In this document: positions 1,790-59,045 of the stretch, piece after piece | How positions within the stretch are numbered: the stretch's first letter is position 1 | Layout: every line of letters starts with the position of its first letter | Assembly: GCA_016214075.1 (NCBI GenBank) | Contig: JACRPI010000005.1 | Location: 2,662 to 66,661 of the forward strand | DNA: 64,000 bases | Direction of reading: 5' to 3' | Source: Candidatus Woesearchaeota archaeon | GTDB taxonomy: Archaea > Nanobdellota > Nanobdellia > Woesearchaeales > DSVV01 | Position numbers and translations under genes: made by a program | Notes under the pieces: model-generated | Seen by the model: the letters and a program-made list of their open reading frames with translations, nothing else | What the model was told of the DNA's origin: nothing | Databases searched by the model: none

Positions 1790-3130
1790 CTATTGTTCTT
1801 CAGATGATTCTTGTTCATCTTCTGTATCTTCAGTGTCCTCGTCTTCAGATTCATCTTCGCTTTCTTCAGTTTCACTGTCAGAAGAGTCATCATCAGATTC
1901 TGCAGCTCGAGATTCTTTCGCATTTTTACGCGCTTCCTTTGCTTCATCACGAGAAGCTTTTATCTCTTCACGTGCTTCATCGCGAGCAGCTTTAATTTCC
2001 TCTCGTGCTTCATTACGTGCAGTTTTTATCTCTTCACGTGCTTCATCGCGTGCGGCTTTAATTTCTTCTCGCGCTTCCTCACGTGCTGTTTTCATTTCTT
2101 CTCGTGCAGCTTTTCGTGATTCTTTAACAGCTTCACGCATGTCTTTCGCGAGTTCTTTTGCTTCTTTGACAAGTGCTCGTGCTTCTTCAGTGAGACTCTT
2201 TACTTCTTCTTTGTCAAAGTCAGCTGCGGCAATTGCTATTTCATCAGCGATCGCTTCAAGCTGCGCGATAATTTCATTAAGTTCTGCGGAACCTTCTGCG
2301 TCACCGTAACGGTCAGCGAGTTTTTGAAGATTGTTCAATCGCGCAAGAACAACAGTGGATTTTGCGTGTGCGTAGCCGCTTCGCGCTTCTCCCCAAGCTT
2401 CTTTTGCTTCATCATCTTCAGTGGATTCTTCTTTATAATCTCCAACTGCTTCAACAACAGCACTCACTTCAACATCATTTTCTTCAAATAATGTTTTTGC
2501 TTCTTCGCGTGCATTCTGTATAATCTCTTTGACTTGTTCATGCACTGCTTCAAAATCACTTTCAGGTGTTAAGCTGTCGCGAAGTGCTTCAAGTTCAGCT
2601 ATGTATGCTTCAATAGCGCTGGTATCAACGTCAGGGAAGTTTTCGTTCAAGTATGCGATAACTCCCTCTGCTGTTAAGATTTTCTCTGTCATAAAATAGT
2701 ATGCGCGTGCATATTCAGTTTCATCCTGCGCTTCTTCCATTGCTGTAACGTCTGCTTCAACATCTTCAAGTTCTAATTCTTCAGCTTCTTCTTCAGTGAT
2801 TGTTTCTTCACTTTCAGTTGAATCTTCTTCATCAGCTTCTGCTGTGGATTCTTCATCATCAGCACTTTCTTCAGCTTCTTCGCTTTCTTGTTCAGAATCA
2901 TCAGTTTCAGTGTCTTCAGAACCTGTTTCTTCGGTAGATTCTTCACTATCATCGCTTTCTTCAGTTGTTTCATCTTCTGCTTCTTCAGACGTTTCCTCGT
3001 CGCTGCTCTCGTCATCAGTGGTCTCTTCTGCGTCTTCAGTTTCTTGTCCTTCTTCTGCAGCAACGCTTACTGCGAAAAGAGAAAAGACAACAAGAAACAC
3101 CATCAATAAAGAATACATTGTTTTGTTCAT
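1790..3130 (-). CDS. Secreted, highly acidic protein with tandem AREEIKAARDE repeats
   Basis: Signal peptide MYSLLMVFLVVFSLFAVSVAA from an internal Met. Asp/Glu-rich N- and C-terminal regions. About five 11-aa repeats encoded by 33-bp DNA repeats at about 1925-2115. Confidence 0.7.
   Translation of the reverse strand: MNKTMYSLLMVFLVVFSLFAVSVAAEEGQETEDAEETTDDESSDEETSEEAEDETTEESDDSEESTEETGSEDTETDDSEQESEEAEESADDEESTAEADEEDSTESEETITEEEAEELELEDVEADVTAMEEAQDETEYARAYYFMTEKILTAEGVIAYLNENFPDVDTSAIEAYIAELEALRDSLTPESDFEAVHEQVKEIIQNAREEAKTLFEENDVEVSAVVEAVGDYKEESTEDDEAKEAWGEARSGYAHAKSTVVLARLNNLQKLADRYGDAEGSAELNEIIAQLEAIADEIAIAAADFDKEEVKSLTEEARALVKEAKELAKDMREAVKESRKAAREEMKTAREEAREEIKAARDEAREEIKTARNEAREEIKAARDEAREEIKASRDEAKEARKNAKESRAAESDDDSSDSETEESEDESEDEDTEDTEDEQESSEEQ
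1925..2115. repeat. Tandem 33-bp direct repeats (about 5.5 units) inside the acidic-protein CDS
   Basis: tcttcacgtgcttcatcgcgagcagctttaatt-type units read directly in the sequence. Confidence 0.8.
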
Positions 3131-3345
3131 GTTCTCATCCTCGTTTTTCTTTGTATATCCCAAATACAAAGGTGTTTAAATATTTTATTAGTGGAAAGAG
3201 GAATGCATGCAATGCATGGTCCATGGCGGGTGTGTTGCACAGGATCCATGCATTGCGCATCCATCATACGCACTACAGATTCTGTAGCTGGAAACTATAT
3301 TACTAATTTTATGGAAACTATGGAAACTATAGGTCTTGAAAAATC

Positions 3346-7743: not shown

Positions 7744-7791
7744 TATTCTTTGAAGAATTATAGCTCATTTATATAGATGACTTTGAATATA

Positions 7792-7880
7792 GTAAATATC
7801 CTTAGATTTCGAACCGGCTATAGGATATTTACTATTCAGCAGAAATCCACCAATGTTCGAATCTCATGGATTTCTGCTAT
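7792..7880. promoter_or_regulatory. Two tandem perfect 12-bp-stem hairpins with loops each containing TTCGAA
   Basis: tagtaaatatcc-[ttagatttcgaaccggctata]-ggatatttacta, then agcagaaatcca-[ccaatgttcgaatctca]-tggatttctgct. Confidence 0.45.
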
Positions 7881-7914
7881 AACACGATTTTTGAGCATTT
7901 ATGCAAATGCATCT

Positions 7915-8112
7915 GTCAAGAACCACCAATCATCGCTCACTTCGTTCGCTATAGATTGGTGGCATGATCGAGGTGGTTCTTGAGCATGTTACGAATATAG
8001 CACCTTCAAAAAAACGAAGGTGGACTGATTGAACTATGTTCAATTCATTACGAATCGCAATTCGAAATGTTGTCCACTGGTTACTAAACCAGTGGTATAT
8101 TCGAAACATATT
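7915..8112 (+). repeat. Family-A structured repeat, copy A1 (with an internal ~47-bp insertion relative to A2)
   Basis: aagaaccacc...ggtggttctt outer stem, caccttc...gaaggtg and ccactggtt...aaccagtgg hairpins, ends ggtatattcgaaacatatt. About 90% identical to 13915-14072. Confidence 0.6.
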
Positions 8113-8211
8113 GAGAATTTTGGCAACTTGAAAGATCCTCAACATTATCAATAACTTCACTCCGAAAGTTTTATATGCATGAAGTAGTAAAAACAGGCAT
8201 AAGGGGCGATC

Positions 8212-10928: not shown

Positions 10929-11717
10929 CTACTTCTTGATCTTAACATTCCCTGCAGGCAGCATCCGTATAATTTCATCAATCGTTCCTACTTTAAACTG
11001 CGAACGAAGCGTTTTTGCGAGATCGCTTGGTTTTTGTTCTCCTTGTACAATTTCGACAAAATGTTCTGCGTGCGCTTTGATCGCGGCGTAAGGTCCTGCG
11101 ATAATCCTTCCTTGTTGAACACCAAACGCAAATCGCATGTCATGATCAATATAATGCATTTTTCCTGTGATGACAAACGCGCCGCGTTCAACATATTCTC
11201 CTGCTTTTGCGGTTTTGGTGACTTGTTCTGGAGTGACCCAGCCAACTTTGACGTTGACAAAGCCAAGTTTCCATGCCCTGCTGTATAGCGCAGTCGCAGT
11301 CGCGGTTTCGTTTATCGTGCGTTCAGAAGGTTCTTTTCCTTCAGATTTAATGACAAAGAAGGGGCTTCCTTGTAAATCCGTGTGAAATATGAGATCTTTT
11401 GGAGCAGTGTGTTTCTTGATAACAAGTTCGTTGGTGATTGCGTCTCTGCCGCCGATCACTAGAAAACCATCAGAAGAGTAAAACCAGTGAAATTTTTCAT
11501 ACCATTCTTTTTTTGGGACGTTTTGGACAGCTGTTTTGTGCGCTTCTACTTTTTGTTCTACTTTATGTTGTTCGTGGAGCGCTGTTTGGAGTTTTTGTTT
11601 GCTGATCTCGAGTGCTTTTTTTGCGCCTTCGAGTTTTTTCTTTGCTTTTTTCGCTTTGTCAAAGTAGATGCCAGCGTTTTCGTGAATAGTTTTCGTGAAG
11701 TTGAGGGAAATTTGCAT
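10929..11717 (-). CDS. NFACT-R (DUF814) RNA-binding protein with N-terminal coiled coil (short Rqc2/NEMF/FbpA-family homolog)
   Basis: DLIFHTDLQGSPFFVIK matches the DUF814 core (lwfHa.d.pGShvvl). Lys/Glu-rich coiled-coil N-terminus. Confidence 0.65.
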   Translation of the reverse strand: MQISLNFTKTIHENAGIYFDKAKKAKKKLEGAKKALEISKQKLQTALHEQHKVEQKVEAHKTAVQNVPKKEWYEKFHWFYSSDGFLVIGGRDAITNELVIKKHTAPKDLIFHTDLQGSPFFVIKSEGKEPSERTINETATATALYSRAWKLGFVNVKVGWVTPEQVTKTAKAGEYVERGAFVITGKMHYIDHDMRFAFGVQQGRIIAGPYAAIKAHAEHFVEIVQGEQKPSDLAKTLRSQFKVGTIDEIIRMLPAGNVKIKK

Positions 11718-11737
11718 GAGTAATTTCCATCTTCTTT

Positions 11738-11747
11738 CCTTTATATA
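11738..11747 (+). promoter_or_regulatory. TATA-box-like element (ctttatataatt) about 25 nt upstream of the GC-rich structured island
   Basis: Archaeal TATA consensus-like tttatata; spacing predicts a transcription start near 11768. Confidence 0.4.
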
Positions 11748-11764
11748 ATTAGTGAAAAAGTCTC

Positions 11765-11874
11765 ATCCCGCCGTAGGCGCCGACGCGACGGGGGAAGGCC
11801 CCTCGGGGTGTCGCGTAGGACAAAATTCGAAGAATTTTGTCCGTAGGCCGCCTGCTGCGGCGGGATGGCAAAGT
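11765..11874 (+). ncRNA. Candidate structured ncRNA (~110 nt, GC-rich island) with a 10-bp closing stem and at least two internal hairpins
   Basis: catcccgccg...cggcgggatg perfect terminal pairing. Internal gcgac-[gggg aagg cccc tc gggg]-gtcgc and a perfect ggacaaaattc-gaa-gaattttgtcc hairpin. Local GC far above the ~38% background, followed by a T-rich tract. Confidence 0.4.
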
Positions 11875-11905
11875 ATTAATAACTAAAAGAATTATTTTAT
11901 CCAAC

Positions 11906-12211
11906 ATGGCCAAAGATTACAAAAAAAAACATCAATCGCAAATCGAATCGCGAATTCGTCATCTCTTTAACGAAGCGCATGAAGTGCGAATTTCAGATAC
12001 ATCTTCCGCGTCGAGATATGTTTTTCTCGCGAGAAAGCTTGCGGCAAAGGCAAAAGTTCGAATTCCAAGAGAACTTAAAAGACAGTTCTGCAAAGAGTGT
12101 AATACATTCTTCATCCCAGGAAAGAATTACACAGTGAGAACAACAGGGAAAACAATCAGCTATACTTGTAAAGTTTGCAAGAAAATCACGAGAATAGGAT
12201 ATAAAAAATAA
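11906..12211 (+). CDS. rnp4: RNase P protein component 4 (Rpp21/Rpr2 family)
   Basis: Start taken at MAKDYKKK. ASRYVFLARKLAAKAKVRIPRELKRQFCKECNTFFIPGKNYTVRTT...CKVCKKITR is the Rpp21 signature with a CxxC...CxxC zinc ribbon. Confidence 0.8.
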   Translation: MAKDYKKKHQSQIESRIRHLFNEAHEVRISDTSSASRYVFLARKLAAKAKVRIPRELKRQFCKECNTFFIPGKNYTVRTTGKTISYTCKVCKKITRIGYKK

Positions 12212-13781: not shown

Positions 13782-13914
13782 TACACAACTTGAGGGGTTG
13801 CAGTTCTTATGCTTTACGTTTTCATTCTGTAAACACGCATCATCTTAACATAAACAATCGCTCCACAAAGTCCACATGCACAATTCATCTCTTTTTTATT
13901 AACTTATTTTTGTC

Positions 13915-14072
13915 AAGAACCACCGATCACCGCTCCCTTCGGTCGCTATAGATAGGTGGCATGATCTCGGTGGTTCTTGAGCATGTTACGAATATAGCAC
14001 CTTCAAAAAAACGAAGGTGGACTTGTCCACTGGTTACTAAACCAGTGGTATATTCGAAACATATTAAAATAT
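13915..14072 (+). repeat. Family-A structured repeat, copy A2
   Basis: Near-identical to 7915-8112 apart from the insertion. A third, partial copy of the aagaaccacc...ggtggttct hairpin lies at about 12338-12378. Confidence 0.6.
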
Positions 14073-17282: not shown

Positions 17283-17555
17283 ATGACAGAGACGACGACA
17301 CAAGAAAAAGCACCAATTCCAGCAGCAGATATTGCTATGATTGTGCAAAACGCGGTGAAGGAAAAAGTTCCTCAAAATGCGGTTATTATTGAGGCAAAAC
17401 CTCTTCTCGCTCGTGATTATGTTGATCCAGTTGATGAGCAATACAAGCTCGAGAGAAAGAACAAAATAGGAACTATAGAGCACAGAGAATCCGCTGAAGG
17501 AATCGGATCCTTACATGCGTTTTTCCTAAGCGCTGGCGACATGCCAGAACTATAG
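17283..17555 (+). CDS. Small hypothetical protein
   Basis: 90 aa ORF preceded by aggggacg (RBS-like), in an otherwise gene-free gap. Confidence 0.3.
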   Translation: MTETTTQEKAPIPAADIAMIVQNAVKEKVPQNAVIIEAKPLLARDYVDPVDEQYKLERKNKIGTIEHRESAEGIGSLHAFFLSAGDMPEL

Positions 17556-17735
17556 TGAACGCACCAAATTATCGTAATAAAAATAGTGCGTTCACTATTC
17601 CGCAGACGCAAATAAGTTACGATAATTTATTGCGTCTACCATATAATCATACTCATCCCAGAGGTGGAGCAAGGCACAAGGATTTTACTCGCATCATCCC
17701 TCCGTGTGTTTATTGCTCCACCGCTTTTTTTTCTC
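17556..17735 (+). other. Hairpin cluster ending in an oligo-T tract (candidate small RNA or terminator cluster)
   Basis: 13-bp inverted repeat tagtgaacgcac...gtgcgttcacta, second hairpin gacgcaaataa...tttattgcgtc, then ggtggagcaa...ttgctccacc followed by TTTTTTTT. Confidence 0.35.
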
Positions 17736-20221: not shown

Positions 20222-20286
20222 GTAATAGTCTGATTTTCTTATTCTCTTTCATTTCATTCTCATTATTTAAGTATGTTTTCTCTCTA

Positions 20287-20440
20287 AAATTAAATAATAA
20301 AAGAATGGAGATTCAAAAGGACTGTAAGGCGAATAAAATGCAGAGGCAGCTATTTATTTCAGCCTACAAGAAAAAACACGCACAAGCAAAGCAAAATGTC
20401 AGGGGGACCCAATGCTCCTTAAGGAGCATTGGGGTATTAT
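20287..20440 (+). repeat. Family-B repeat, full copy B1
   Basis: aaattaaataataaaagaatggagattcaaaaggactgtaaggcgaat...acacgcacaagcaaagcaaaaTGTCAGGGGGACCC-AATGCTCCttaaGGAGCATT-GGGGTATTAT. Confidence 0.6.
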
Positions 20441-20542
20441 GGAAGTAAAGACAATAAAAAATTATCTAAAACATATCAAACGAAAAAGAGAGCATAGACC
20501 AAGCTTTCAATATCTTTAAATAGAACAGATGTAGAGATAAAA

Positions 20543-23778: not shown

Positions 23779-26700
23779 ATGAACACAAAAGCAACAAAAT
23801 TTATTCTCTGGTTTGATGAGTTAGGTATTGAAGACGTCCCAATCGTGGGCGGCAAAAACGCGTCGTTGGGTGAAATGTATAGAATTCTTGTTCCGCAAGG
23901 AGTACGGATCCCCAATGGCTTTGCGGTAACCGCGTACGCGTATCATTATCTTGTGGAGAAAGCAGGAATTAAAGCAAGTATCCAGCAAATTTTGAAAGGA
24001 TTAGATACACAGAATGTTTCTGATCTTGCGGAACGAGGGCATAAAGTACGAGAGATTATCAGAACCGCGAAGTTTCCAGAAGAGCTTGCGGTGGAAATCA
24101 TAGCGGCATATCAAAAGATGTGCAAGCTATATGGGAGCAGAACAGATGTCGCGGTGCGATCGAGCGCGACAGCAGAAGATTTGCCAGACGCGAGTTTTGC
24201 GGGCCAGCAGGAGACCTATCTGAATATTCGTGGAGACAGTGACTTGATTAACGCGTGTAAGAATTGTTTTGCGTCTCTCTTCACCAATCGTGCGATTTCC
24301 TACAGAGTGGACAAGGGCTTTGACCATTTTTCTATTGGATTAAGTATTGGTGTCCAGAAGATGGTGCGTAGCGATAAGGCGTGTTCTGGCGTTATGTTTT
24401 CAATTGATACAGAAACAGGATTTCAAAACGCGGTCTTCGTTACAGCGGCGTATGGTCTTGGAGAAACCGTCGTTCAGGGCGCAGTCAACCCAGATGAGTA
24501 TTATGTGTTTAAGCCAACATTAAAAACAGGGCATAAATCAATTTTATCAAAACGTGTTGGCGAGAAAAAAATAATGATGGTGTATAGTGATAAAGTGCAG
24601 CAGACAACAAAGACTGTCGCGGTTTCAGAAGACCAGCGAAAGAAATTCGTGCTCACTGATGATGAAATTTTAACCCTCTCAAAATGGGCGTGCATTATTG
24701 AAGATCATTATTCGCGAAAAGCAGGAAAGTTCAAACCAATGGATATGGAATGGGCAAAAGATGGCGTCACAAACCAATTATTTATTGTGCAGGCTCGTCC
24801 AGAAACAGTGCATTCACAACAGGATTTGACGCAGTTAAAAGAGTATGGGCTCGCGAAAAAAGGAAAAGTAGTGGTTATTGGAAAAGCGGTTGGCGAAAAG
24901 ATTGGTCAAGGAGCGGCGGCAATAATCAAGGATGTCAAGGATATTTCGCAGTTCAAGAAAGGGCAAGTTTTGGTCACAGAAATGACAGATCCGGATTGGG
25001 AACCAATTATGAAGATTGCGAGTGCGATTGTCACGAATAGTGGGGGGAGGACGTGTTTTCCAGCAGGCACTAAAATTTTAACAAATAAAGGATTTAGAAA
25101 TATTGAAGAGATTTATGACAATCATGAGGAGATTGAAGTTCCTTCGTTAAACAGGAAGACGCTCAAAGTAGAGTGGAAGCCGGTTATTGCTTCCATGAAA
25201 AGAAGAGCAGAAGTTATTGAAATTGAAACATCATTGACAGGGAGAATGAAGGGCAACACATTGCGGCTTACGCCAAATCATAAAATGCTCACCTTTAATG
25301 ATGCTCAATTAGTTGATAAAGAAATTCAACAGATGCTTCATGAACAGCAAATGCTTTTGTGTGCGCAAAAAATTCCAGCGCTTACAGAATCAACTGAAAA
25401 ACAAAAAGCACTAGCATACCTTTTAGGTGCAATAAGCACAGATGGGAGCATTTATACCTCTAGAACACATGGTGAAGTACAGTTTATTCAGAAAGAAACA
25501 GAAGAAAAAAAAGAATTTATTGAATATGTAAATACATGCTTAAATGAAACATACAATAAAGAGTTTAGCGTGTCAGTCAAAAAAACAAGTAGTGGAGAGA
25601 TTAGAGGAAAACCAGCGATTGGCAATGCGAATGCGTATCGCTGTTATAGCAAAGAGGTTGCGTATACGCTGCTTCGGGAACAGCAGACAATAACGCAAAC
25701 GCTCCTGAAAGCGGATGAATCTCTTATTTATTCTTTCCTTGCGGGAGTTATTGATGGCGATGGGTCATTAAGCGCAGAAAAAAATAGAATTAATATTTAT
25801 TGTTCTAAGGAATATCTGTTTCAGGCAATAATCGTGGGCTGCCTTAGAATTGGAATTGTTCCGCAAGCAACAGTAAACAGAACAATTTGGAACATCCAGA
25901 TTGTTGAAAAAGTAGATGAAATTTGTAAATGGACAAAAAGAGTTAAAGGGAAAGAAGAAAGAAAAAGAATAGGAACAAGATTTTTTAGTGCAAGGCAGCT
26001 TTTAGGAGGAAGCAAGTACATTGGACATTTCTCCACAAGTTTAGGTAAAAATCTTTTATTAGATGCAAAAAAAATAGATGCTGCAAAAAAGTTTCTTTCT
26101 CCAGAGTATGCGCAAAGAATTGAACATGTTTTACTATCAGATACAAGAATGCAGAGAGTTTCATTCGCTCATGATTGTGGTGAGCAGGATGTGTACAATA
26201 TTACTGTCGCGGATAATCATAACTATGTTGTCTTTACAGAGAGATATACTCCAGTTGTAGTCAATAACTGTCACGCGGCGATTGTCAGCAGAGAGTTAGG
26301 AGTCCCATGTGTCGTCGGAACAAATAATGGGACAGAAAAAATAAAGCAAGGTCAAAAAGTGACAGTAGACTGTTCGAGTGGCGATGAAGCAATCGTTTAT
26401 GATGGATTGTTGAAAATAAATGTTAAGGTCACGGATCTGAAAAAAATTCCAGAAACAAAAACAAAAATCATGATGAATCTTGCGGCGCCTGAGCAGGCGT
26501 TTGAGAAATCATTTTTGCCAAATAGCGGCGTGGGATTAGCGCGACAAGAGTTTATTATAAGTTCGTACATTAAAGTGCATCCAAAAGCGTTAATTCATTT
26601 TGATGAATTGAAAGATAAAAAGCTCAAAGAGGAGATTGAAGAAATAACATACAATTACAAAGATAAAAAGGAATTTTTTATTGACAAACTCAGCCAGGGC

Positions 26701-27402
26701 ATCGCGACAATTGGTGCAGCGTTTTATCCAAAAGATGTGATTGTCAGGATGAGTGACTTCAAGAGCAATGAGTATGCGAATCTTATTGGGGGTCATTTGT
26801 ATGAACCAAAGGAAGATAACCCAATGATTGGCTGGCGTGGCGCGTCTCGGTATTATACAGATTATCAGGAAGGATTTGAGTTAGAATGTAAAGCAATGAG
26901 AAGAGTCAGAGAAACAATTGGCTTGACCAATGTCAAAGTCATGATTCCGTTCTGTCGAACAATTGAAGAAGGGAAAAAAGTATTGGACGTCATGAAAAAA
27001 CAAGGACTGGTACAGGGCAAGAATGGCTTGCAGGTCTATGTGATGTGCGAAATCCCCTCTAATGTCATCTTGGCAGAAGAATTCCTCAGCATTTTTGATG
27101 GATTCTCGATTGGTTCAAATGATCTCACGCAACTCACGTTAGGAGTTGATCGTGATTCAGCGTTAGTCGCGCATGTCTATAACGAGAGCAACGAAGCGGT
27201 CAAGCTTCTTGTTCAGCGTGTTGTCCATGTCGCGAATAAAATGAAGAAGCACATGGGTTTCTGTGGGCAGGCGCCAAGCGATAATATCGAATTCGCGAAG
27301 TTCCTCGTCGAGTGTGGAATTGAGTCCATGTCTTTGAATCCAGATTCTGTGGTGAAGACAACGTTGGCAGTTGCGGATGTGGAGAGGAAAGTGAAGAGGT
27401 AA
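23779..27402 (+). CDS. ppsA: Phosphoenolpyruvate synthase (pyruvate, water dikinase) interrupted by a 405-aa LAGLIDADG intein
   Basis: Canonical PpsA N-terminus (WFDELGIEDVPIVGGKNASLGEMY), phospho-His motif GGRT|...|CHAAIVSRELGVPCVVG split by the insert, C-terminal PEP-binding TIM barrel. Confidence 0.9.
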   Translation: MNTKATKFILWFDELGIEDVPIVGGKNASLGEMYRILVPQGVRIPNGFAVTAYAYHYLVEKAGIKASIQQILKGLDTQNVSDLAERGHKVREIIRTAKFPEELAVEIIAAYQKMCKLYGSRTDVAVRSSATAEDLPDASFAGQQETYLNIRGDSDLINACKNCFASLFTNRAISYRVDKGFDHFSIGLSIGVQKMVRSDKACSGVMFSIDTETGFQNAVFVTAAYGLGETVVQGAVNPDEYYVFKPTLKTGHKSILSKRVGEKKIMMVYSDKVQQTTKTVAVSEDQRKKFVLTDDEILTLSKWACIIEDHYSRKAGKFKPMDMEWAKDGVTNQLFIVQARPETVHSQQDLTQLKEYGLAKKGKVVVIGKAVGEKIGQGAAAIIKDVKDISQFKKGQVLVTEMTDPDWEPIMKIASAIVTNSGGRTCFPAGTKILTNKGFRNIEEIYDNHEEIEVPSLNRKTLKVEWKPVIASMKRRAEVIEIETSLTGRMKGNTLRLTPNHKMLTFNDAQLVDKEIQQMLHEQQMLLCAQKIPALTESTEKQKALAYLLGAISTDGSIYTSRTHGEVQFIQKETEEKKEFIEYVNTCLNETYNKEFSVSVKKTSSGEIRGKPAIGNANAYRCYSKEVAYTLLREQQTITQTLLKADESLIYSFLAGVIDGDGSLSAEKNRINIYCSKEYLFQAIIVGCLRIGIVPQATVNRTIWNIQIVEKVDEICKWTKRVKGKEERKRIGTRFFSARQLLGGSKYIGHFSTSLGKNLLLDAKKIDAAKKFLSPEYAQRIEHVLLSDTRMQRVSFAHDCGEQDVYNITVADNHNYVVFTERYTPVVVNNCHAAIVSRELGVPCVVGTNNGTEKIKQGQKVTVDCSSGDEAIVYDGLLKINVKVTDLKKIPETKTKIMMNLAAPEQAFEKSFLPNSGVGLARQEFIISSYIKVHPKALIHFDELKDKKLKEEIEEITYNYKDKKEFFIDKLSQGIATIGAAFYPKDVIVRMSDFKSNEYANLIGGHLYEPKEDNPMIGWRGASRYYTDYQEGFELECKAMRRVRETIGLTNVKVMIPFCRTIEEGKKVLDVMKKQGLVQGKNGLQVYVMCEIPSNVILAEEFLSIFDGFSIGSNDLTQLTLGVDRDSALVAHVYNESNEAVKLLVQRVVHVANKMKKHMGFCGQAPSDNIEFAKFLVECGIESMSLNPDSVVKTTLAVADVERKVKR
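25054..26268 (+). mobile_element. Intein in ppsA (Cys1 ... terminal Asn, +1 Cys) with LAGLIDADG homing-endonuclease domain
   Basis: Begins CFPAGTKILT right after GGRT and ends VVVNN before CHAAIV. Two dodecapeptide motifs LAYLLGAISTDGSI and FLAGVIDGDGSL. Confidence 0.85.
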
Positions 27403-27774: not shown

Positions 27775-30297
27775 ATGGAATTCATCGCGGACATGCACAT
27801 TCACAGCAAATATTCACGAGCATGCTCAAAAGATCTCACCATTCTCAATCTCGAAAAGTGGGCAAAAATAAAAGGCGTCAATCTCTTAGGCACAGGAGAT
27901 TTTACCCATCCAAAATGGATTCAGGAACTCAAATCCTCTTTAACAGAAACAGAAAAAGACAGTGGGTTCTTTCAAACAGCGACAGGATTTAATTTCATTC
28001 TGCAAACAGAGATTTCCTTAATTTACACGCATAATAACAAAGGCAGAAAAATTCACAATCTCATTTTCGCGCCAAGTTTTCAGGCAGTGGACGAAATCAC
28101 AAAATTCTTGCTCACCAGAGGAAGAGTAGACTACGATGGCAGACCAATTTTCAAAATTCCTTGTCCAGAATTAGTTGAAAAAATGAAAGCAATAGATGAG
28201 CGCATCCAGGTTATCCCCGCGCATTGTCTTCTACCCAATGAAAAAGTTGTTTGTAATCCAAAAGCAAAAGCCATCTCTAATATAAAAGTAGGTGATATGG
28301 TTTTAACACACAAAGGTAATTTCAAAAAAATAAAACAGATATTCAATAGGCAATATAAAGGTAAAGCTTATAAAATTCAGCCTTATTATTTTAGAGAAGG
28401 AGTAGCGGTAACTGAAGAGCACCCATTTCTCGCCATAAAACCTGTTAAAAACTGTAGTTTTGTAGGAGGGCTCTGTAAACCTAATAGTACTGCTCAGGGA
28501 AAACATAGTTGTACTAAAAAACATTATAATTATTATAAATCAGAATGGATACAGGCAAAAAATTTAGAAAAAAATGATATTATATTATATCCCCGAATTA
28601 AAGAAATAAAAGATTCAAAAAATATTAATTTATCGGATTTTATAGAAAAGTGTAATTATAAAATCTCTGAACTTACCATAATCCCAAAATCAGGAAGACA
28701 AGATAAACCTATAAAGAATATCATAGAAACAGATAATGATTTCTGTCGGCTTGTTGGATATTTCTTAGCAGAGGGTTATATTAATAAAAAAAATAGTGTA
28801 TTACAATTTTCCTTTGGTCCTACTGAAAAAGGGTATATAGACGATGTCACTCTTCTCATGGAAAGATGTTTTGGGATAAAAATAACAAAAGTGAGGGAAA
28901 GAAATGGGTATGAATTATATTTCTTCTCTAAGCCATTAGTGGAGATGTTTGAAACTTTATTTTATGAAAAAGAAAAACCTAAAAGAGCATTTTCTAAACA
29001 GCTCCCTCAATGGATGCTCTATCTGCCATTATCTAAACAAGCTGAAATTTTAAGGGGGTGGTGGAGAGGTGATGCTGGATGGACAACTTCTGAGGTTCTT
29101 GCAGAAGAAATGAAAATTATTTGTTTACGGTTAGGCATACTTCCTTCCATCTCTAGAATAACTAAAGAGACGCATAATAAGAAACCACATCTTTTAGGTG
29201 AAAGGACAATAACTGCAAAAAATGATTTTATGATCTTTGAAAGATTATCCTTTTACAGAGATGAATTTTCGTTACTGGAAGATGCATCATTTCATAAATT
29301 CAAATCAAAATTAGAGAGAAAACATGGATGGATGGATGATCATTATTTTTATATTCCTATTAAAAAAATAGAAACTTTTGATTACTCGGGGTTCGTCTAT
29401 AATTTAGAAGTCGAAGACGATAATTCTTATGTTACTTCGGCAGCAACAGTACATAATTGCTGGACACCATGGTTTGGCTTATACGGCGCGAATGGTGGTT
29501 TCGATAGCATAAAAGACGCGTTTCAGGATCAGATAAAAAATGTCCATGCAGTTGAAACTGGTCTCTCAAGCAATCCTGAAATGAATTGGCGCTTGAAAGA
29601 GTTGGACAACATCAATCTCGTAAGCTTCTCAGACACGCATAGCTTTTGGCCGTGGAGATTGGGAAGAGAAGCGACAGTTCTCAATATCGAACCAACGTTC
29701 AACGCGCTCGCAAAAGCGTTGGAAACAGGAAATGGTTTGAAAGAAACGATTGAAGTCAATCCAAATCTTGGAAAATATCACATGACTGGACATAGAGTTT
29801 GCAATGTTTCTTTCCATCCAGATGAAGCAAAAAAGCTGAATGATGTCTGTCCAAAGTGCGGCAACAAATTAACAGTTGGTGTTGATCAGCGCATTGAACA
29901 ACTCGCGGATCGTCCGTTAGGATACAAGCCAGAAAACGCGAAACCGTTTCGCTCTTTAATTCCAATCTCAGAACTTCTTGCGCAATTTCATGGAAAAGCA
30001 GTTGCGACAAAGAAAGTTTGGGAAGAGTACAGAAAATTAGTAACAGACAAACAATCCGAATATGATGTGCTTCTTCGAATGCCAATAGACGAGATTGCCA
30101 AAGCAACAAGCGCGGAGTTTGCAGAGATCATGGAAAGAAACAGAGCAGGAAAAATAAACGTCAAAGGCGGCTATGATGGTGTCTATGGTGTTCCATTATT
30201 GGATGAGAAAGCAGAAGAGAAATATCAGGAAGAGCACCAGAACGTGATGGCAAGTATGAAAAAAAAGCAGACAGGATTGCAGGAGTTCTTGAGTTAG
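27775..30297 (+). CDS. endoQ: Endonuclease Q (EndoQ, PHP-domain nuclease with C-terminal zinc ribbon) interrupted by a 411-aa intein
   Basis: N-terminus MEFIADMHIHSKYSRACS (PHP motif); exteins VIPAH|...|CWTPWFGLYGANGGF; C-terminal CPKCGNKL zinc finger. Extein length ~429 aa matches EndoQ. Confidence 0.7.
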   Translation: MEFIADMHIHSKYSRACSKDLTILNLEKWAKIKGVNLLGTGDFTHPKWIQELKSSLTETEKDSGFFQTATGFNFILQTEISLIYTHNNKGRKIHNLIFAPSFQAVDEITKFLLTRGRVDYDGRPIFKIPCPELVEKMKAIDERIQVIPAHCLLPNEKVVCNPKAKAISNIKVGDMVLTHKGNFKKIKQIFNRQYKGKAYKIQPYYFREGVAVTEEHPFLAIKPVKNCSFVGGLCKPNSTAQGKHSCTKKHYNYYKSEWIQAKNLEKNDIILYPRIKEIKDSKNINLSDFIEKCNYKISELTIIPKSGRQDKPIKNIIETDNDFCRLVGYFLAEGYINKKNSVLQFSFGPTEKGYIDDVTLLMERCFGIKITKVRERNGYELYFFSKPLVEMFETLFYEKEKPKRAFSKQLPQWMLYLPLSKQAEILRGWWRGDAGWTTSEVLAEEMKIICLRLGILPSISRITKETHNKKPHLLGERTITAKNDFMIFERLSFYRDEFSLLEDASFHKFKSKLERKHGWMDDHYFYIPIKKIETFDYSGFVYNLEVEDDNSYVTSAATVHNCWTPWFGLYGANGGFDSIKDAFQDQIKNVHAVETGLSSNPEMNWRLKELDNINLVSFSDTHSFWPWRLGREATVLNIEPTFNALAKALETGNGLKETIEVNPNLGKYHMTGHRVCNVSFHPDEAKKLNDVCPKCGNKLTVGVDQRIEQLADRPLGYKPENAKPFRSLIPISELLAQFHGKAVATKKVWEEYRKLVTDKQSEYDVLLRMPIDEIAKATSAEFAEIMERNRAGKINVKGGYDGVYGVPLLDEKAEEKYQEEHQNVMASMKKKQTGLQEFLS
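28225..29457 (+). mobile_element. Intein in the EndoQ gene (Cys1 ... His-Asn, +1 Cys) with degenerate LAGLIDADG-type endonuclease domain
   Basis: Starts CLLPNEKVV and ends SAATVHN before CWTPW. LVGYFLAEGY and ILRGWWRGDAGW are dodecapeptide-like motifs. Confidence 0.7.
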
Positions 30298-42267: not shown

Positions 42268-42315
42268 AATTATTCATGTTGTGTCATATTCTTCATCTCT
42301 TAATACGTTTTGAAA

Positions 42316-42467
42316 AATAAATAATAAAAGAATAGGGATTCTCAAGGACTGTCAGGCGATTCACACAGCAACAAGGCGATTGTTTGCCTAGCAACAGAGC
42401 AAATACACGCACCAGTAAAAGCTAAATTGTCAGGGGGACCCATCACGTAGTGATGGGATTATTATGA
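42316..42467 (+). repeat. Family-B repeat, full copy B2
   Basis: gaaaaataaataataaaagaatagggattctcaaggactgtcaggcgatt...aaggcgatt...acacgcaccagtaaaagctaaatTGTCAGGGGGACCC-ATCACgtagTGAT-GGGATTATTAT. Confidence 0.6.
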
Positions 42468-49783: not shown

Positions 49784-51382
49784 GTGGTAATGCATTTTTC
49801 GTTGAACAAAAAAATACTCAACAGTATTATTTCTTTTTTGATTTTTATTTCAATTCTTACAGCAGTTTCCGCGCAGGATTATCTTGCGTTGCAGGGAAGC
49901 GCGGCAGGTTCTGGTAGAGGAATAGGAAGTGGGACTGGGCAAGGAAATATTACTATTGAGATTTGGGGTGCAGCAACAGGAGGTTCTTTGCTTTATAACT
50001 CTACATCAGATTTTTGGGGTGCGTTAAATAATAGTAGATATGATATTTTACTTGGAAATGGGTCGCAGCCATTAAATCTCAATTTTTCAAATACATATTT
50101 CATGGAAATCTACATTAATGAGAGAGAATTGGATTTTAATGGAACTGAACGACAGGTTTTTCAGAGTCCAGTAGGAAATATTACAGTGACGACGCCGATT
50201 AAAACAACAAATAGTTTGAACGTGAATGATTTCTTTAATGTAACTGGGTCAACGAGTGTAGTTAGAACAAATGGGACAGTGATGATTTTGAATGCTGATG
50301 TTGATGATGCGTTGAACGTCTCTGGTGCAGTTTTCTCAGACACTCAATTTAAAACAGATGGACCAATTATTAGTATAGCGGCAGCAACAGCATTAGGTTT
50401 GGATGTCAGCGGCTTTGCGACCGTTGCCAATTTCTTCAACGTGACTCCAGCAACAAGCGCAGTACGAACAAATGGGACAGTAACTATAATTAATGCAGAC
50501 GTAGATGACGCGTTGAACGTGACAGGAGCTACATTTTCAACATTGCAAGTTAAGACAGATGGTGGATTCATTAGCCGTGCGGCAGCAACAGCGCTAGGTT
50601 TGGATGTCAGCGGCTTTGCGACCGTTGCCAATTTCTTTAACGTGACTCCAGCAACAAGCGCAGTACGAACAAATGGGACAGTAACTATAATTAATGCAGA
50701 CGTAGATGACGCGTTGAACGTTTCAGGTGGGTTAAAGATGGGTTCAGAACCAGGGTCAGCATTCACCTTTGCAAGTTTTACTATCAGCGACCAAGGTGTC
50801 GTCACAACTGATGCAAACATTGGACCAGTTGCAGGAAGAGGGAATGTGATCATCAATAGTCTCACAGAGCCAGCGTTGAGAATTAACTCAGGATTCAACG
50901 TGAGTGGGACAACAGGAAATCTCAAAACAAATGGGACAATTACCATTACAAATCTTGATTCAGACGATGCGTTCAACGTTAGCGGTGCCTCTATCTTTAA
51001 AGATAAGGTCTTTATCTCGGGTCCTGCTCCAGATCCTATATTTACAGTGAACAATGGGTTTAATATCAGCGCAAGTAATGGTGCAGTTAGAACAAATGGA
51101 ACAATTACCATTACAAACCCTGATACAGACGATGCGTTGAATGTCACAGGAAGCATTGCGCAGCAAGGACCTGCGTTCACTATTGGCAATGCAGATTCAA
51201 CGACACAAAATCATGTTGATATTTATGATGGGGGATCAAACAAATGTGCGTATCTTACATTATACGATGAGAATGGTGGTCCACATTATTTCTGGACGAA
51301 TACGACTGGTGGTCTTCTCACTGCGTCTCTTCCACCAATTAATTGTGATGGAGAAGGAACAACTGTAGGTTCACAAGCATAG
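49784..51382 (+). CDS. Secreted tandem-repeat surface protein rich in N-glycosylation sequons
   Basis: Signal peptide, then about six ~56-aa repeats (NVTxxTSxVRTNGTVxIxNADVDDALNVSG). Near-identical 168-bp DNA repeats at about 50393-50560 and 50561-50730. Confidence 0.75.
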   Translation: MVMHFSLNKKILNSIISFLIFISILTAVSAQDYLALQGSAAGSGRGIGSGTGQGNITIEIWGAATGGSLLYNSTSDFWGALNNSRYDILLGNGSQPLNLNFSNTYFMEIYINERELDFNGTERQVFQSPVGNITVTTPIKTTNSLNVNDFFNVTGSTSVVRTNGTVMILNADVDDALNVSGAVFSDTQFKTDGPIISIAAATALGLDVSGFATVANFFNVTPATSAVRTNGTVTIINADVDDALNVTGATFSTLQVKTDGGFISRAAATALGLDVSGFATVANFFNVTPATSAVRTNGTVTIINADVDDALNVSGGLKMGSEPGSAFTFASFTISDQGVVTTDANIGPVAGRGNVIINSLTEPALRINSGFNVSGTTGNLKTNGTITITNLDSDDAFNVSGASIFKDKVFISGPAPDPIFTVNNGFNISASNGAVRTNGTITITNPDTDDALNVTGSIAQQGPAFTIGNADSTTQNHVDIYDGGSNKCAYLTLYDENGGPHYFWTNTTGGLLTASLPPINCDGEGTTVGSQA

Positions 51383-53747: not shown

Positions 53748-53912
53748 CATCATAAATACCCCATTACACTTTAGTGTAATGGGTCCCCCTGACATTTTTG
53801 CTTTACTGGTGCGTGTATTCTTCTTTACTATTAAACAATAATTCGCCTTACTACTACATGAATCGCCTTATTGTCCTTTTGAATCCCCATGTCTTTATTA
53901 TTTATTTTTTAA
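53748..53912 (-). repeat. Family-B repeat, full copy B3 (reverse orientation)
   Basis: Reverse complement reads aaataaataataaagacatggggattcaaaaggacaataaggcgattc...aaggcgaatt...acacgcaccagtaaagcaaaaaTGTCAGGGGGACCC-ATTACACtaaaGTGTAAT-GGGGTATTTAT. Confidence 0.6.
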
Positions 53913-54066
53913 AATACTGATTATTTTTCTAAACATCGTACGAAAACAAACAAAACAACAATCAAATACTCTCTTTCATTCCCGAGTGGTTATAAAACTT
54001 TAAATAAGGCAAGTAGCAGAAAAAGAAAATACCTGAGATCAAAGATTTCAAGGAGGGGTGTTTATT

Positions 54067-58720: not shown

Positions 58721-58835
58721 AAGGTATTTTTTGCGCAGTTCTTGTTTATATGTTTTGTTGAAGGAAGGATATCATTTATCTTTTCCGTTGTTTTGTGGGG
58801 ATTTTGTGTATTCATCTATTTTTACAAACTCCATA

Positions 58836-58946
58836 AAACCCCATTGCACTCAAGTGCAATGGGTCCCCCGGGCATTTTGCTTTTGCTGGTGCGTGTTTTG
58901 AAGCTTGTCGTAGCCCAGTGTAGCTTTGAATCGCCATACTCCTTTA
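58836..58946 (-). repeat. Family-B repeat, truncated copy B4 (reverse orientation; CCCGGG variant of the TGTCAGGGGG box)
   Basis: ccCCATTGCACtcaaGTGCAATGGgtcccccgggcattttgcttttgctggtgcgtgt...ggcgattcaaag. Confidence 0.55.
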
Positions 58947-59003
58947 CTGTCAGGGGGACCCATTCCAACGCGCTTTTGCGTTGGAATGGGGTATTATTAA
59001 GGT
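58947..59003 (+). repeat. Family-B 3' module copy B5, head-to-head with B4
   Basis: cTGTCAGGGGGACCC-ATTCCAACGCgcttttGCGTTGGAAT-GGGGTATTATTAAGG. Confidence 0.55.
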
Positions 59004-59045
59004 GTAAACATATTAAAGAGAATCATAATTACAAAATAACACGAA

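Follow-up and report, generated by a model that had tools for sequence, protein, structure and literature searches.

Within the 64-kb stretch of DNA analyzed here (referred to as the window), the genes for NFACT-R (RqcH/Tae2-like; 10929 to 11717, minus strand) and the RNase P protein Rpp21 (rnp4; Pfam Rpr2; 11906 to 12211, plus strand) are divergently oriented. Homologues of the flanking proteins are annotated as Candidatus Woesearchaeota (DPANN). The spacer between the two genes contains a GC-rich closed multi-hairpin element of 104 nt, which we refer to as element A (11764 to 11867, plus strand). An earlier note on this DNA had described a GC-rich, highly structured island between these neighbors; both neighbors were confirmed, and all sequence features listed for the island were found where that note had placed them. 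The GC content of element A is 0.65 over 80 nt and 0.75 over 60 nt, compared to 0.39 for the window. Of the 30 intergenic gaps in the window, the one with element A has the highest GC content, none of the others exceeding 0.60, and by BLAST, element A is single-copy within the window.

Element A is predicted to fold into a three-way junction, all parts of which are given here for the plus strand. The terminal helix P1 is formed by the inverted repeat CATCCCGCCG (11764 to 11773) and its complement CGGCGGGATG (11858 to 11867), which pair perfectly over 10 bp and over 13 nt at 92% complementarity when the helix is extended. Pair checks placed helix P1b between GGCG (11776 to 11779) and CGCC (11849 to 11852), and the P2 arm at 11785 to 11814, where GCGAC (11785 to 11789) pairs with GTCGC (11810 to 11814) around a GGGG-GAAGG-CCCC hairpin. 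P3 is the hairpin GGACAAAATTC-gaa-GAATTTTGTCC (11818 to 11842), which has 11 bp without mismatch and is preceded by TA and followed by GT. Thus, the 10-bp terminal helix, the gcgac...gtcgc helix enclosing GGGG/CCCC, and the perfect 11-bp hairpin with a gaa loop, as originally described, are all present. The plus strand has a minimum free energy of −67 kcal/mol (z-score, −5.79), and 0 of 200 dinucleotide shuffles folded as well, while the minus strand reaches −58 kcal/mol (z-score, −5.42). The proposed topology of a terminal helix plus two arms is, therefore, what 11764 to 11867 folds into, far beyond chance (z-score, −5.8).

The spacer also contains the core promoters of both flanking genes. 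On the NFACT-R side, a TATA box, TTTATATA (11740 to 11747), is adjacent to a BRE-like ATTAGT (11748 to 11753). The box is located 22 nt from the NFACT-R start codon in 8 of the 8 relatives that retain this start, and it is part of a conserved block with the structure TGCAT-(22 nt)-TTTAWATA-NTTARTGAAAA in eight relatives (seven sequence variants, as L103 equals L092), in which TGCAT holds the NFACT-R start codon on the complementary strand. Both the TATA box and ATTAGTGAAAA are conserved, and the spacing to the NFACT-R ATG is fixed at 22 nt. On the minus strand, ATTAGT reads ACTAAT, which we take to fit the consensus RNWAAW of the archaeal BRE (TFB-recognition element). Based on the constant 22-nt spacing and the minus-strand BRE reading, the TTTATATA box is at least the promoter of NFACT-R, i.e., 11740 to 11753 form the minus-strand core promoter of a leaderless gene. 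Because the box is symmetric, rightward firing may also occur. The earlier note had assigned element A its own TATA box ~25 nt upstream; a box is indeed present, and the pairing of element A begins 24 nt after the first base of this box, but its use by the element was not borne out, as spacing and BRE point to NFACT-R.

On the other side, the rnp4 TATA box ATTAATAA (11875 to 11882, plus strand) begins 8 nt past the end of element A and is conserved in relatives. This ATTAATA box lies 23 nt before the ATG in the window and across relatives, a spacing that fits a leaderless mRNA. With the geometry calibrated on the two leaderless genes, a plus-strand start from TTTATATA is predicted near 11770, i.e., inside the 5′ arm of P1, and 6 of the 10 P1 pairs of element A would be lost. 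A terminator scan identified no terminator-like site on the plus strand after element A, and this region has no run of ≥5 T. As for the T-rich tract that had been noted 3′ of the element, the only such sequence is a T4 run at 11894 to 11897, which is part of the AT-rich core promoter of rnp4 and does not resemble a terminator.

The NFACT-R/rnp4 spacer in related strains

Divergent adjacency of NFACT-R and rnp4 is limited to relatives in which NFACT-R is at least 69% identical. Among 80 more distant Woesearchaeota loci, rnp4 is not adjacent, no element homologous to A was found upstream of NFACT-R, and a GC island in this position is almost absent. In relatives with adjacency, spacer length ranges from 13 to 535 nt.

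In relatives with 89 to 97% identical flanking proteins, element A is inverted, enlarged to 235 nt, or replaced. Besides the window, element A was found in L102, L088, and L090. In L102 (NFACT-R 95% identical), it is reverse-complemented and followed, 7 nt on, by a second element, B, in rnp4 orientation. In L088 (NFACT-R 97% identical), the first ~38 nt of element A are present before the sequence diverges, and L090 (Rpp21 96%) supplies the remainder of the long form begun in L088; the 235-nt long form is, thus, pieced together from these two loci. Compared to element A, the last 64 nt of the long form are identical, its 5′ end matches at 34 of 38 positions, and ~126 extra nt are located in the apex of P2, in place of TC at 11803 to 11804 of the window allele. 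Among the remaining relatives, L089 has element B alone, L085 and L091 have element C (two hairpins plus U6-U7), L084 has element E, L092 to L100, L103, and L106 have element D, and L185 has element F. No obvious element was detected in the spacer of L082. The 69% relative L086 has a spacer of 13 nt with no element; there (L086, 2950 to 3003), the Rpp21 open reading frame (ORF) starts at an ATG that belongs to the conserved TTAATGAAAA block and is separated from the start of NFACT-R by 13 nt, which implies that the divergent promoters are interleaved without a spacer element. In a separate observation, a non-coding block of approximately CTGCGTnGTCATGTAGTAGCATC..GAATGTGCGTGTAG is conserved 60 to 100 nt upstream of rnp4/Rpr2 in relatives of 62 to 75% identity (L082, L092 to L100, L106, and L185); L185 has two copies, and none was seen in the window spacer.

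The earlier proposal of a novel ncRNA gene is not supported as far as a conserved gene is concerned, given the inverted, 235-nt, and replaced forms in the 89 to 97% relatives and the absence of an element in the 69% relative. Judged by this comparison of sequences, element A is unlike a dedicated, vertically conserved ncRNA gene.

We identified element A only at this locus when 81 loci were searched with BLAST and nhmmer and, subsequently, 108 loci with BLAST. A six-frame concatenated query against 5.8 billion predicted proteins yielded no further copies, and BLAST against phages and plasmids as well as pattern scans of viral contigs yielded nothing similar to element A. The bare inverted-repeat pattern gave 76 viral matches, which were discarded as chance matches; those loci average 62% GC. 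Altogether, in 585 kb of DNA from relatives, elements A, B, and E were identified at no other locus.

Architecture shared by elements A, B, and E

Elements A, B, and E have the same P1/P1b/P2/P3 layout despite unrelated helix sequences. In all three, the order is P1, P1b, the hairpin P2, a linker ending in UA, and P3 framed by GGAC...G(U/G)CC-GU. P1b, for instance, is GGCG/CGCC in A, GCAAAC/GUUUGC in B, and CAGAC/GUCUG in E. The pairs were checked by script; MAFFT gave no structural alignment of the three elements. Using a motif regular expression on both strands, we found the frame TAGGAC...G(T/G)CCGT, which is common to A, B, and E, nowhere else in the 585 kb. The 5′ end of P1 lies 24 to 27 nt past the first TATA base in A (window), B (L089), and E (L084). 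Element B ends in a U6 run and element C in a U6-U7 run. Moreover, most relatives, including those with no more than 51 to 63% identity, have a closed double-hairpin element close to NFACT-R or rnp4.

Allele comparisons bear on whether the fold matters. The window and L102 alleles of element A differ at six positions, of which four are unpaired and the other two make up one compensatory change in the outermost P1 pair (C-G in the window and A-T in L102), with 0 of 34 pairs broken (Fisher p = 0.013). The two B alleles have three differences; two constitute a compensatory change from C-G to U-A, and one is in a loop. Element B contains four G·U pairs, has a z-score of −9.1, and folds 11 kcal/mol better on the plus (rnp4-sense) strand. 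Because the allele differences are confined to loops or are compensatory, they show that the fold of one strand is under selection and that the element is structure-constrained. Since all 34 core pairs of element A are Watson-Crick pairs, its sense strand cannot be called.

These comparisons make it improbable that element A is a neutral relic of foreign, higher-GC DNA that resides without function in a recombination-prone spacer. Such a relic would be in line with a GC content of 65 to 75% in a 39% genome, with the single copy, and with the high plasticity of the spacer. Against it, the allele differences spare all 34 pairs and include one compensatory pair, the AT-richer elements B and E share the layout, and the phage, plasmid, and viral-contig collections contain no similar sequence.

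The main alternative to the reading that we favor below is that a fast-evolving small RNA gene exists at this locus, of which A, B, and E would be alleles or paralogues. Its product would be a three-way-junction RNA with a putative protein-binding junction, transcribed rightward from TTTATATA and functioning either in trans or within a ribonucleoprotein particle. We regard this as possible but somewhat unlikely. The layout kept despite unrelated helices, the invariant frame, the compensatory changes and G·U pairs, the distance of P1 from the first TATA base in the window, L089, and L084, the U runs at the ends of B and C, and the recurrence of a closed double hairpin near NFACT-R or rnp4 in most relatives all agree with an RNA gene. 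However, in L102, where element A is inverted, only 7 nt separate the 5′ ends of A and B, which leaves no room for a promoter. Likewise, presence, absence, and replacement of the element vary among strains with 89 to 97% identical neighbors. In the window itself, the calibrated start near 11770 would remove 6 of the 10 P1 pairs, and element A is not followed by a run of ≥5 T. The 34 of 34 Watson-Crick core pairs, which leave the sense strand of A uncallable, also speak against this alternative. Measured against the promoter and terminator expected of an independent archaeal sRNA gene, the picture is mixed: a TATA box is present near element A but is shared with NFACT-R and oriented toward it by its BRE, and U6-U7 runs are present in B and C but not after A.

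Alternatively, element A could be a cis-acting RNA of rnp4, either as the leader of a longer mRNA isoform (e.g., an autoregulatory mimic of the Rpp21-Rpp29 site on RNase P RNA) or as an insulator against divergent transcripts. Element A ends 8 nt and element B 27 nt before the rnp4 TATA box, in the same orientation as rnp4; in L102, the more stable strand of A points to NFACT-R and that of B to rnp4; and C and B have their U runs on that strand. A similar arrangement is found for two further elements, F2 and G, in the YhbY/Na-H exchanger spacer (see below). Nevertheless, we give this idea little credence. The rnp4 TATA box is conserved at a leaderless distance, which places the element upstream of the promoter and outside the main transcript, and element A has no U tract. 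The sequence turnover and the absence of an element in L086 and L082 oppose a specific protein-binding mimic, and strings resembling GAGGAAAG are confined to the long form and B, where they lie in ordinary hairpins. We note a regularity, recognized post hoc, that the elements are located 4 to 70 nt upstream of a TATA box and that the callable sense strands point to the corresponding gene, which would fit a cis role in read-in transcripts.

Other structured repeats of the window and the proposed accessory-module reading

When every intergenic gap was screened for folding energy in excess of expectation, structured elements other than A emerged, among them three more dispersed structured repeat families (F, G, and H) with covarying stems. 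Family F has copies at 7782 to 7884 and 17545 to 17646 (minus strand), each a closed double hairpin, and in L185 (108 to 209, plus strand); using a covariance model, we detected a weak copy in the 51%-identity relative L056 (2357 to 2479), directly upstream of the NFACT-R TATA box. Copies share the frame TATAG-stem-loop-stem-CTGAATAG-stem-loop-stem-CTAT, and the stems covary fully, with 11 of the 26 pairs compensatory. The covariance model scores 105 to 116 bits on the sense strand versus 37 to 46 bits for the antisense orientation. Elements A, B, and E are not picked up by this model, which, therefore, does not establish a direct link between the families. Family F has no Rfam match. Its two loops could form a kissing interaction, as they are complementary to each other over 12 nt (17.5-kb copy) or 7 nt (7.8-kb copy). 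Copies are found a short distance upstream of the TATA boxes of YhbY and, in L056, NFACT-R, whereas the copy in L185 precedes Rpr2.

Family G consists of a long copy (7914 to 8112), which has a 44-nt internal insertion between GGAC and GTCC, and a short copy (13911 to 14065). The copies are 94 to 100% identical, each comprises a long hairpin and a closed double hairpin, and their short and long forms parallel those of element A. Family H is a repeat of ~160 nt with five copies of 75 to 82% identity to each other, of which three are full-length (20286 to 20443, plus strand; 42308 to 42466, plus strand; and 53751 to 53914, minus strand) and start with the TATA-like AAATAAATAATAAAA; the others are at 58830 to 58899 (minus strand) and 58943 to 59006 (plus strand). 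In this family, CAGGGGGACCCA and TGGGGTATT are near-invariant around a hairpin in which 5 of the 10 stem pairs are compensatory. Family H could be a multicopy sRNA or a repeat element.

The divergent spacer between the genes for YhbY and a Na-H exchanger is 468 nt long in the window (7744 to 8211), where it holds F2 and the long copy of G, versus 85 nt in the 69%-identity relative (L086, 6476 to 6560). It is, thus, a second spacer with presence/absence of structured modules.

With regard to the coding content of the window, none of its 63 ORFs contains a transposase, integrase, or reverse transcriptase domain based on Pfam. Two large ORFs (23779 to 27402 and 27775 to 30297) contain intein splicing and LAGLIDADG domains, and the former encodes a pyruvate phosphate dikinase/PEP-utilizing enzyme interrupted by the intein. 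Tandem direct repeats of ~200 nt (83% identical) are present at 50229 to 50729, with weaker copies to ~51145, inside a 532-amino acid ORF (49784 to 51382), and a repeat with a 66-nt offset is present at 1940 to 2138 inside the ORF at 1790 to 3169. These features indicate that the latter two ORFs would encode repetitive proteins, for which there are no Pfam matches.

The reading that we prefer, and hold tentatively at somewhat below an even chance, is that element A is an accessory, structure-constrained spacer cassette, REP/BIME-, ERIC-, or MITE-like, between the divergent core promoters of NFACT-R and rnp4 in one Woesearchaeota species group. It is based on the finding that element A is flipped, enlarged, swapped, or missing in sister strains. 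Accordingly, A, B, and E (possibly also C, D, and F) would be interchangeable closed double-hairpin modules that may be gained, lost, flipped, enlarged by internal insertion, and placed in tandem between strains. Element A would be transcribed passively, either by rightward firing of the symmetric NFACT-R TATA box, with a start near 11770, or by read-in from upstream, and the transcript would fold into a stable three-way junction before the rnp4 TATA box and serve at most as a local insulator or stabilizer. Rearrangement could occur via the terminal inverted repeat, by hairpin/cruciform-mediated recombination or by an enzyme acting in trans and encoded outside the window.

Several lines of evidence agree with an accessory module. 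The locus varies between strains, including the flipped element A in L102, the long form from L088 and L090, and the 13-nt spacer in L086; the alleles of A and B indicate a constraint on the fold; NFACT-R and rnp4 each have their own TATA box, and no terminator follows element A; and families F, G, and H occur in the same window, with the YhbY/Na-H exchanger spacer also variable. Other observations count against it. The 64 kb contain one copy of element A, the 585 kb contain A, B, and E at one locus only, and the six-frame search of 5.8 billion predicted proteins gave no further copies; there is no evident target-site duplication; and the 63 ORFs of the window include no transposase, integrase, or reverse transcriptase. 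In addition, a layout kept over fully diverged sequences, together with UAGGAC...GKCCGU and G·U pairs, is more typical of a functional RNA, and P1 begins 24 to 27 nt past the first TATA base in A, B, and E, near the expected transcript start.

To our knowledge, the structured non-coding elements of DPANN archaea are almost uncharted. In a single 64-kb window of a small Woesearchaeota genome, we found at least four intergenic hairpin-module families with covarying stems, and element A was seen flipped, enlarged, swapped, and deleted among near-identical strains. With considerable doubt, we propose that A, B, and E, perhaps together with the F and G modules, might represent an undescribed class of closed double-hairpin (three-way-junction) elements in DPANN archaea that lie immediately upstream of core promoters, face the downstream gene, are selected on one strand, and are exchanged as cassettes. 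Such a class would be either an archaeal counterpart of REP/BIME or a small-RNA family with a UAGGAC/GKCCGU protein-binding junction. If mobile, these modules would be REP/MITE-like elements in a lineage without described ones; if RNAs, they would constitute a new promoter-proximal RNA class. For annotation, the lesson is that a location beside the gene for an RNase P protein does not by itself make a well-folding GC-rich island a housekeeping RNA or one related to RNase P.

Comparison with known RNAs and repeat elements

At the gathering score, Rfam 15 (including RNaseP_arch, RNaseP-T, 5S_rRNA, tRNA, Archaea_SRP, hammerhead, and riboswitches) gave 0 matches in the whole 64-kb window. At E ≤10, there were only chance-level matches in 11650 to 11950 and in L085, L088, L089, L090, and L091, including 198 nt of the long form. 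ARAGORN identified no tRNA/tmRNA gene in the 64 kb. These results are in agreement with the failure of the earlier note to match the element by eye to tRNA, 5S, SRP, or RNase P RNA, and the Rfam scan that it had suggested detected no known RNA family at element A. The window as a whole (1 to 64000) contains no tRNA, rRNA, or other RNA gene recognized by Rfam.

The proximity to an RNase P protein gene was considered noteworthy in the earlier note, but a link to RNase P is not supported, as rnp4 has its own TATA box, the adjacency is found only in close relatives, and CR-I/CR-V are lacking. Specifically, the short form of element A has neither CR-I (GAGGAAAGUCC) nor CR-V, the strands that form helix P4. 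The long form carries GAGGAAAGG but no complementary CR-V-like strand, and when we threaded it by eye on the P1-P4 scheme, RNase P RNA was rejected for want of a CR-V/P4 partner. Moreover, rnp4 is retained in L085, L086, L089, and L091, where element A is absent or replaced, whereas an RNase P RNA would be essential and present in every strain with genes for the protein subunits.

Based on these analyses, the idea that element A is a degenerate or miniaturized RNase P RNA, 5S rRNA, tRNA, or other known RNA is effectively refuted. Its attraction lay in the adjoining rnp4, in the GAGGAAAG string of the long form, which resembles CR-I, and in the terminal helix with a three-way junction; like element A, RNase P RNA and 5S rRNA have their 5′ and 3′ ends paired in a terminal helix and contain a multi-helix junction. 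In contrast to these RNAs, neither element A nor any variant has a covariance-model match or the core motifs: no strand resembles CR-V or the 3′ strand of helix P4, the CR-I-like string is missing from the short form, and the element is dispensable in sister strains.

Other candidates were also rejected. By eye, the junction strands fit none of the hammerhead, bulge-helix-bulge (BHB), K-turn, H/ACA, C/D box, and integron attC motifs, none of which is conserved between A and B. We also considered whether a small ORF might be conserved, with its start at the conserved GTG/ATG-AAA after the TATA box. ORFs of 13 to 57 amino acids exist, but a comparison of L085 with L091 by eye showed that homologous DNA is read in different frames, yielding peptides unrelated to each other.

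Hgc RNAs and H/ACA guides are ncRNAs of AT-rich archaea that reside in GC-rich islands and were found through their GC bias. Element A resembles Hgc-type ncRNAs in being a structured GC-rich island in an AT-rich archaeal genome that is visible from composition alone. However, Hgc-type ncRNAs are conserved genes with families now in Rfam, while element A matches none of these and varies even within the species group.

Among bacterial repeats, REP/BIME, i.e., GTAG-tagged repetitive extragenic palindromes, are 20 to 40 bp long, high-copy, and mostly located downstream of genes, and all reports of them come from bacterial phyla (Di Nocera et al. 2013, PMC3733652). They are intergenic non-coding hairpins with complementary stem changes, G·T/G·U pairs, and variable loops in which palindromes may be nested, and they occur singly, as opposed dimers, or as mosaics (PMC3733652). 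The elements described here are similar in being non-coding intergenic hairpin modules with compensatory stems, variable loops, and tandem or opposed arrangement. In element A, GTAG-GACAAAATTC..GAATTTTGTCC matches the REP format of a palindrome with an unpaired terminal GTAG, and with two further CGTAGG-plus-helix modules, there are three (C)GTAGG-plus-helix modules; the whole unit, however, is a 104-nt closed junction. In B and E, ATAG/GTAG precedes P3. The threefold CGTAGG is only weakly unusual, as 4.5% of the shuffled versions of A also contain some 6-mer three times. Across the window, a REP-style TAG before a hairpin is not enriched, and the GTAG tag is considered a resemblance only. Different from REP, element A has a length of 104 nt and a terminal helix that closes it, is present once in 64 kb, and is located between divergent promoters of an archaeon. 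No Y1 (RAYT; Y1_Tnp) transposase domain, the kind of gene with which GTAG-tagged REPs are associated, is encoded in the window.

MITE/ERIC/Correia-type repeats are ~100 to 250 bp long, have terminal inverted repeats, and occur in either orientation, in short and long forms, and with strain polymorphism. Element A shares with them its size, terminal inverted repeats, strong fold at the RNA level, occurrence in both orientations, short and long forms that arise from internal indels, and presence/absence between strains. Specifically, it has a perfect 10-bp terminal inverted repeat within 104 nt without coding capacity. By contrast, there is one copy in 64 kb and none elsewhere in 585 kb of related loci, no related autonomous element was found, and the 63 ORFs of the window include no cognate transposase. 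With regard to a target-site duplication, AAAGT flanks both arms in the window at a distance of 2 nt, but L102 does not share this feature. Also, DDE-type MITEs would not be expected to keep their internal architecture across fully diverged sequences, as A, B, and E do. As far as the 64-kb window tells, membership of element A in REP/BIME or MITE fails on copy number and cognate transposase, and no target-site duplication is evident.

Finally, flip/flop inversions at hairpin arms are known from parvovirus terminal repeats and as minute inversions at chloroplast hairpins. Element A lies in a chromosomal spacer rather than at a replicative telomere, and a shared mechanism can be suggested only by analogy; the likeness is that the window and L102 have the same arms but carry the segment enclosed by them in opposite orientations.
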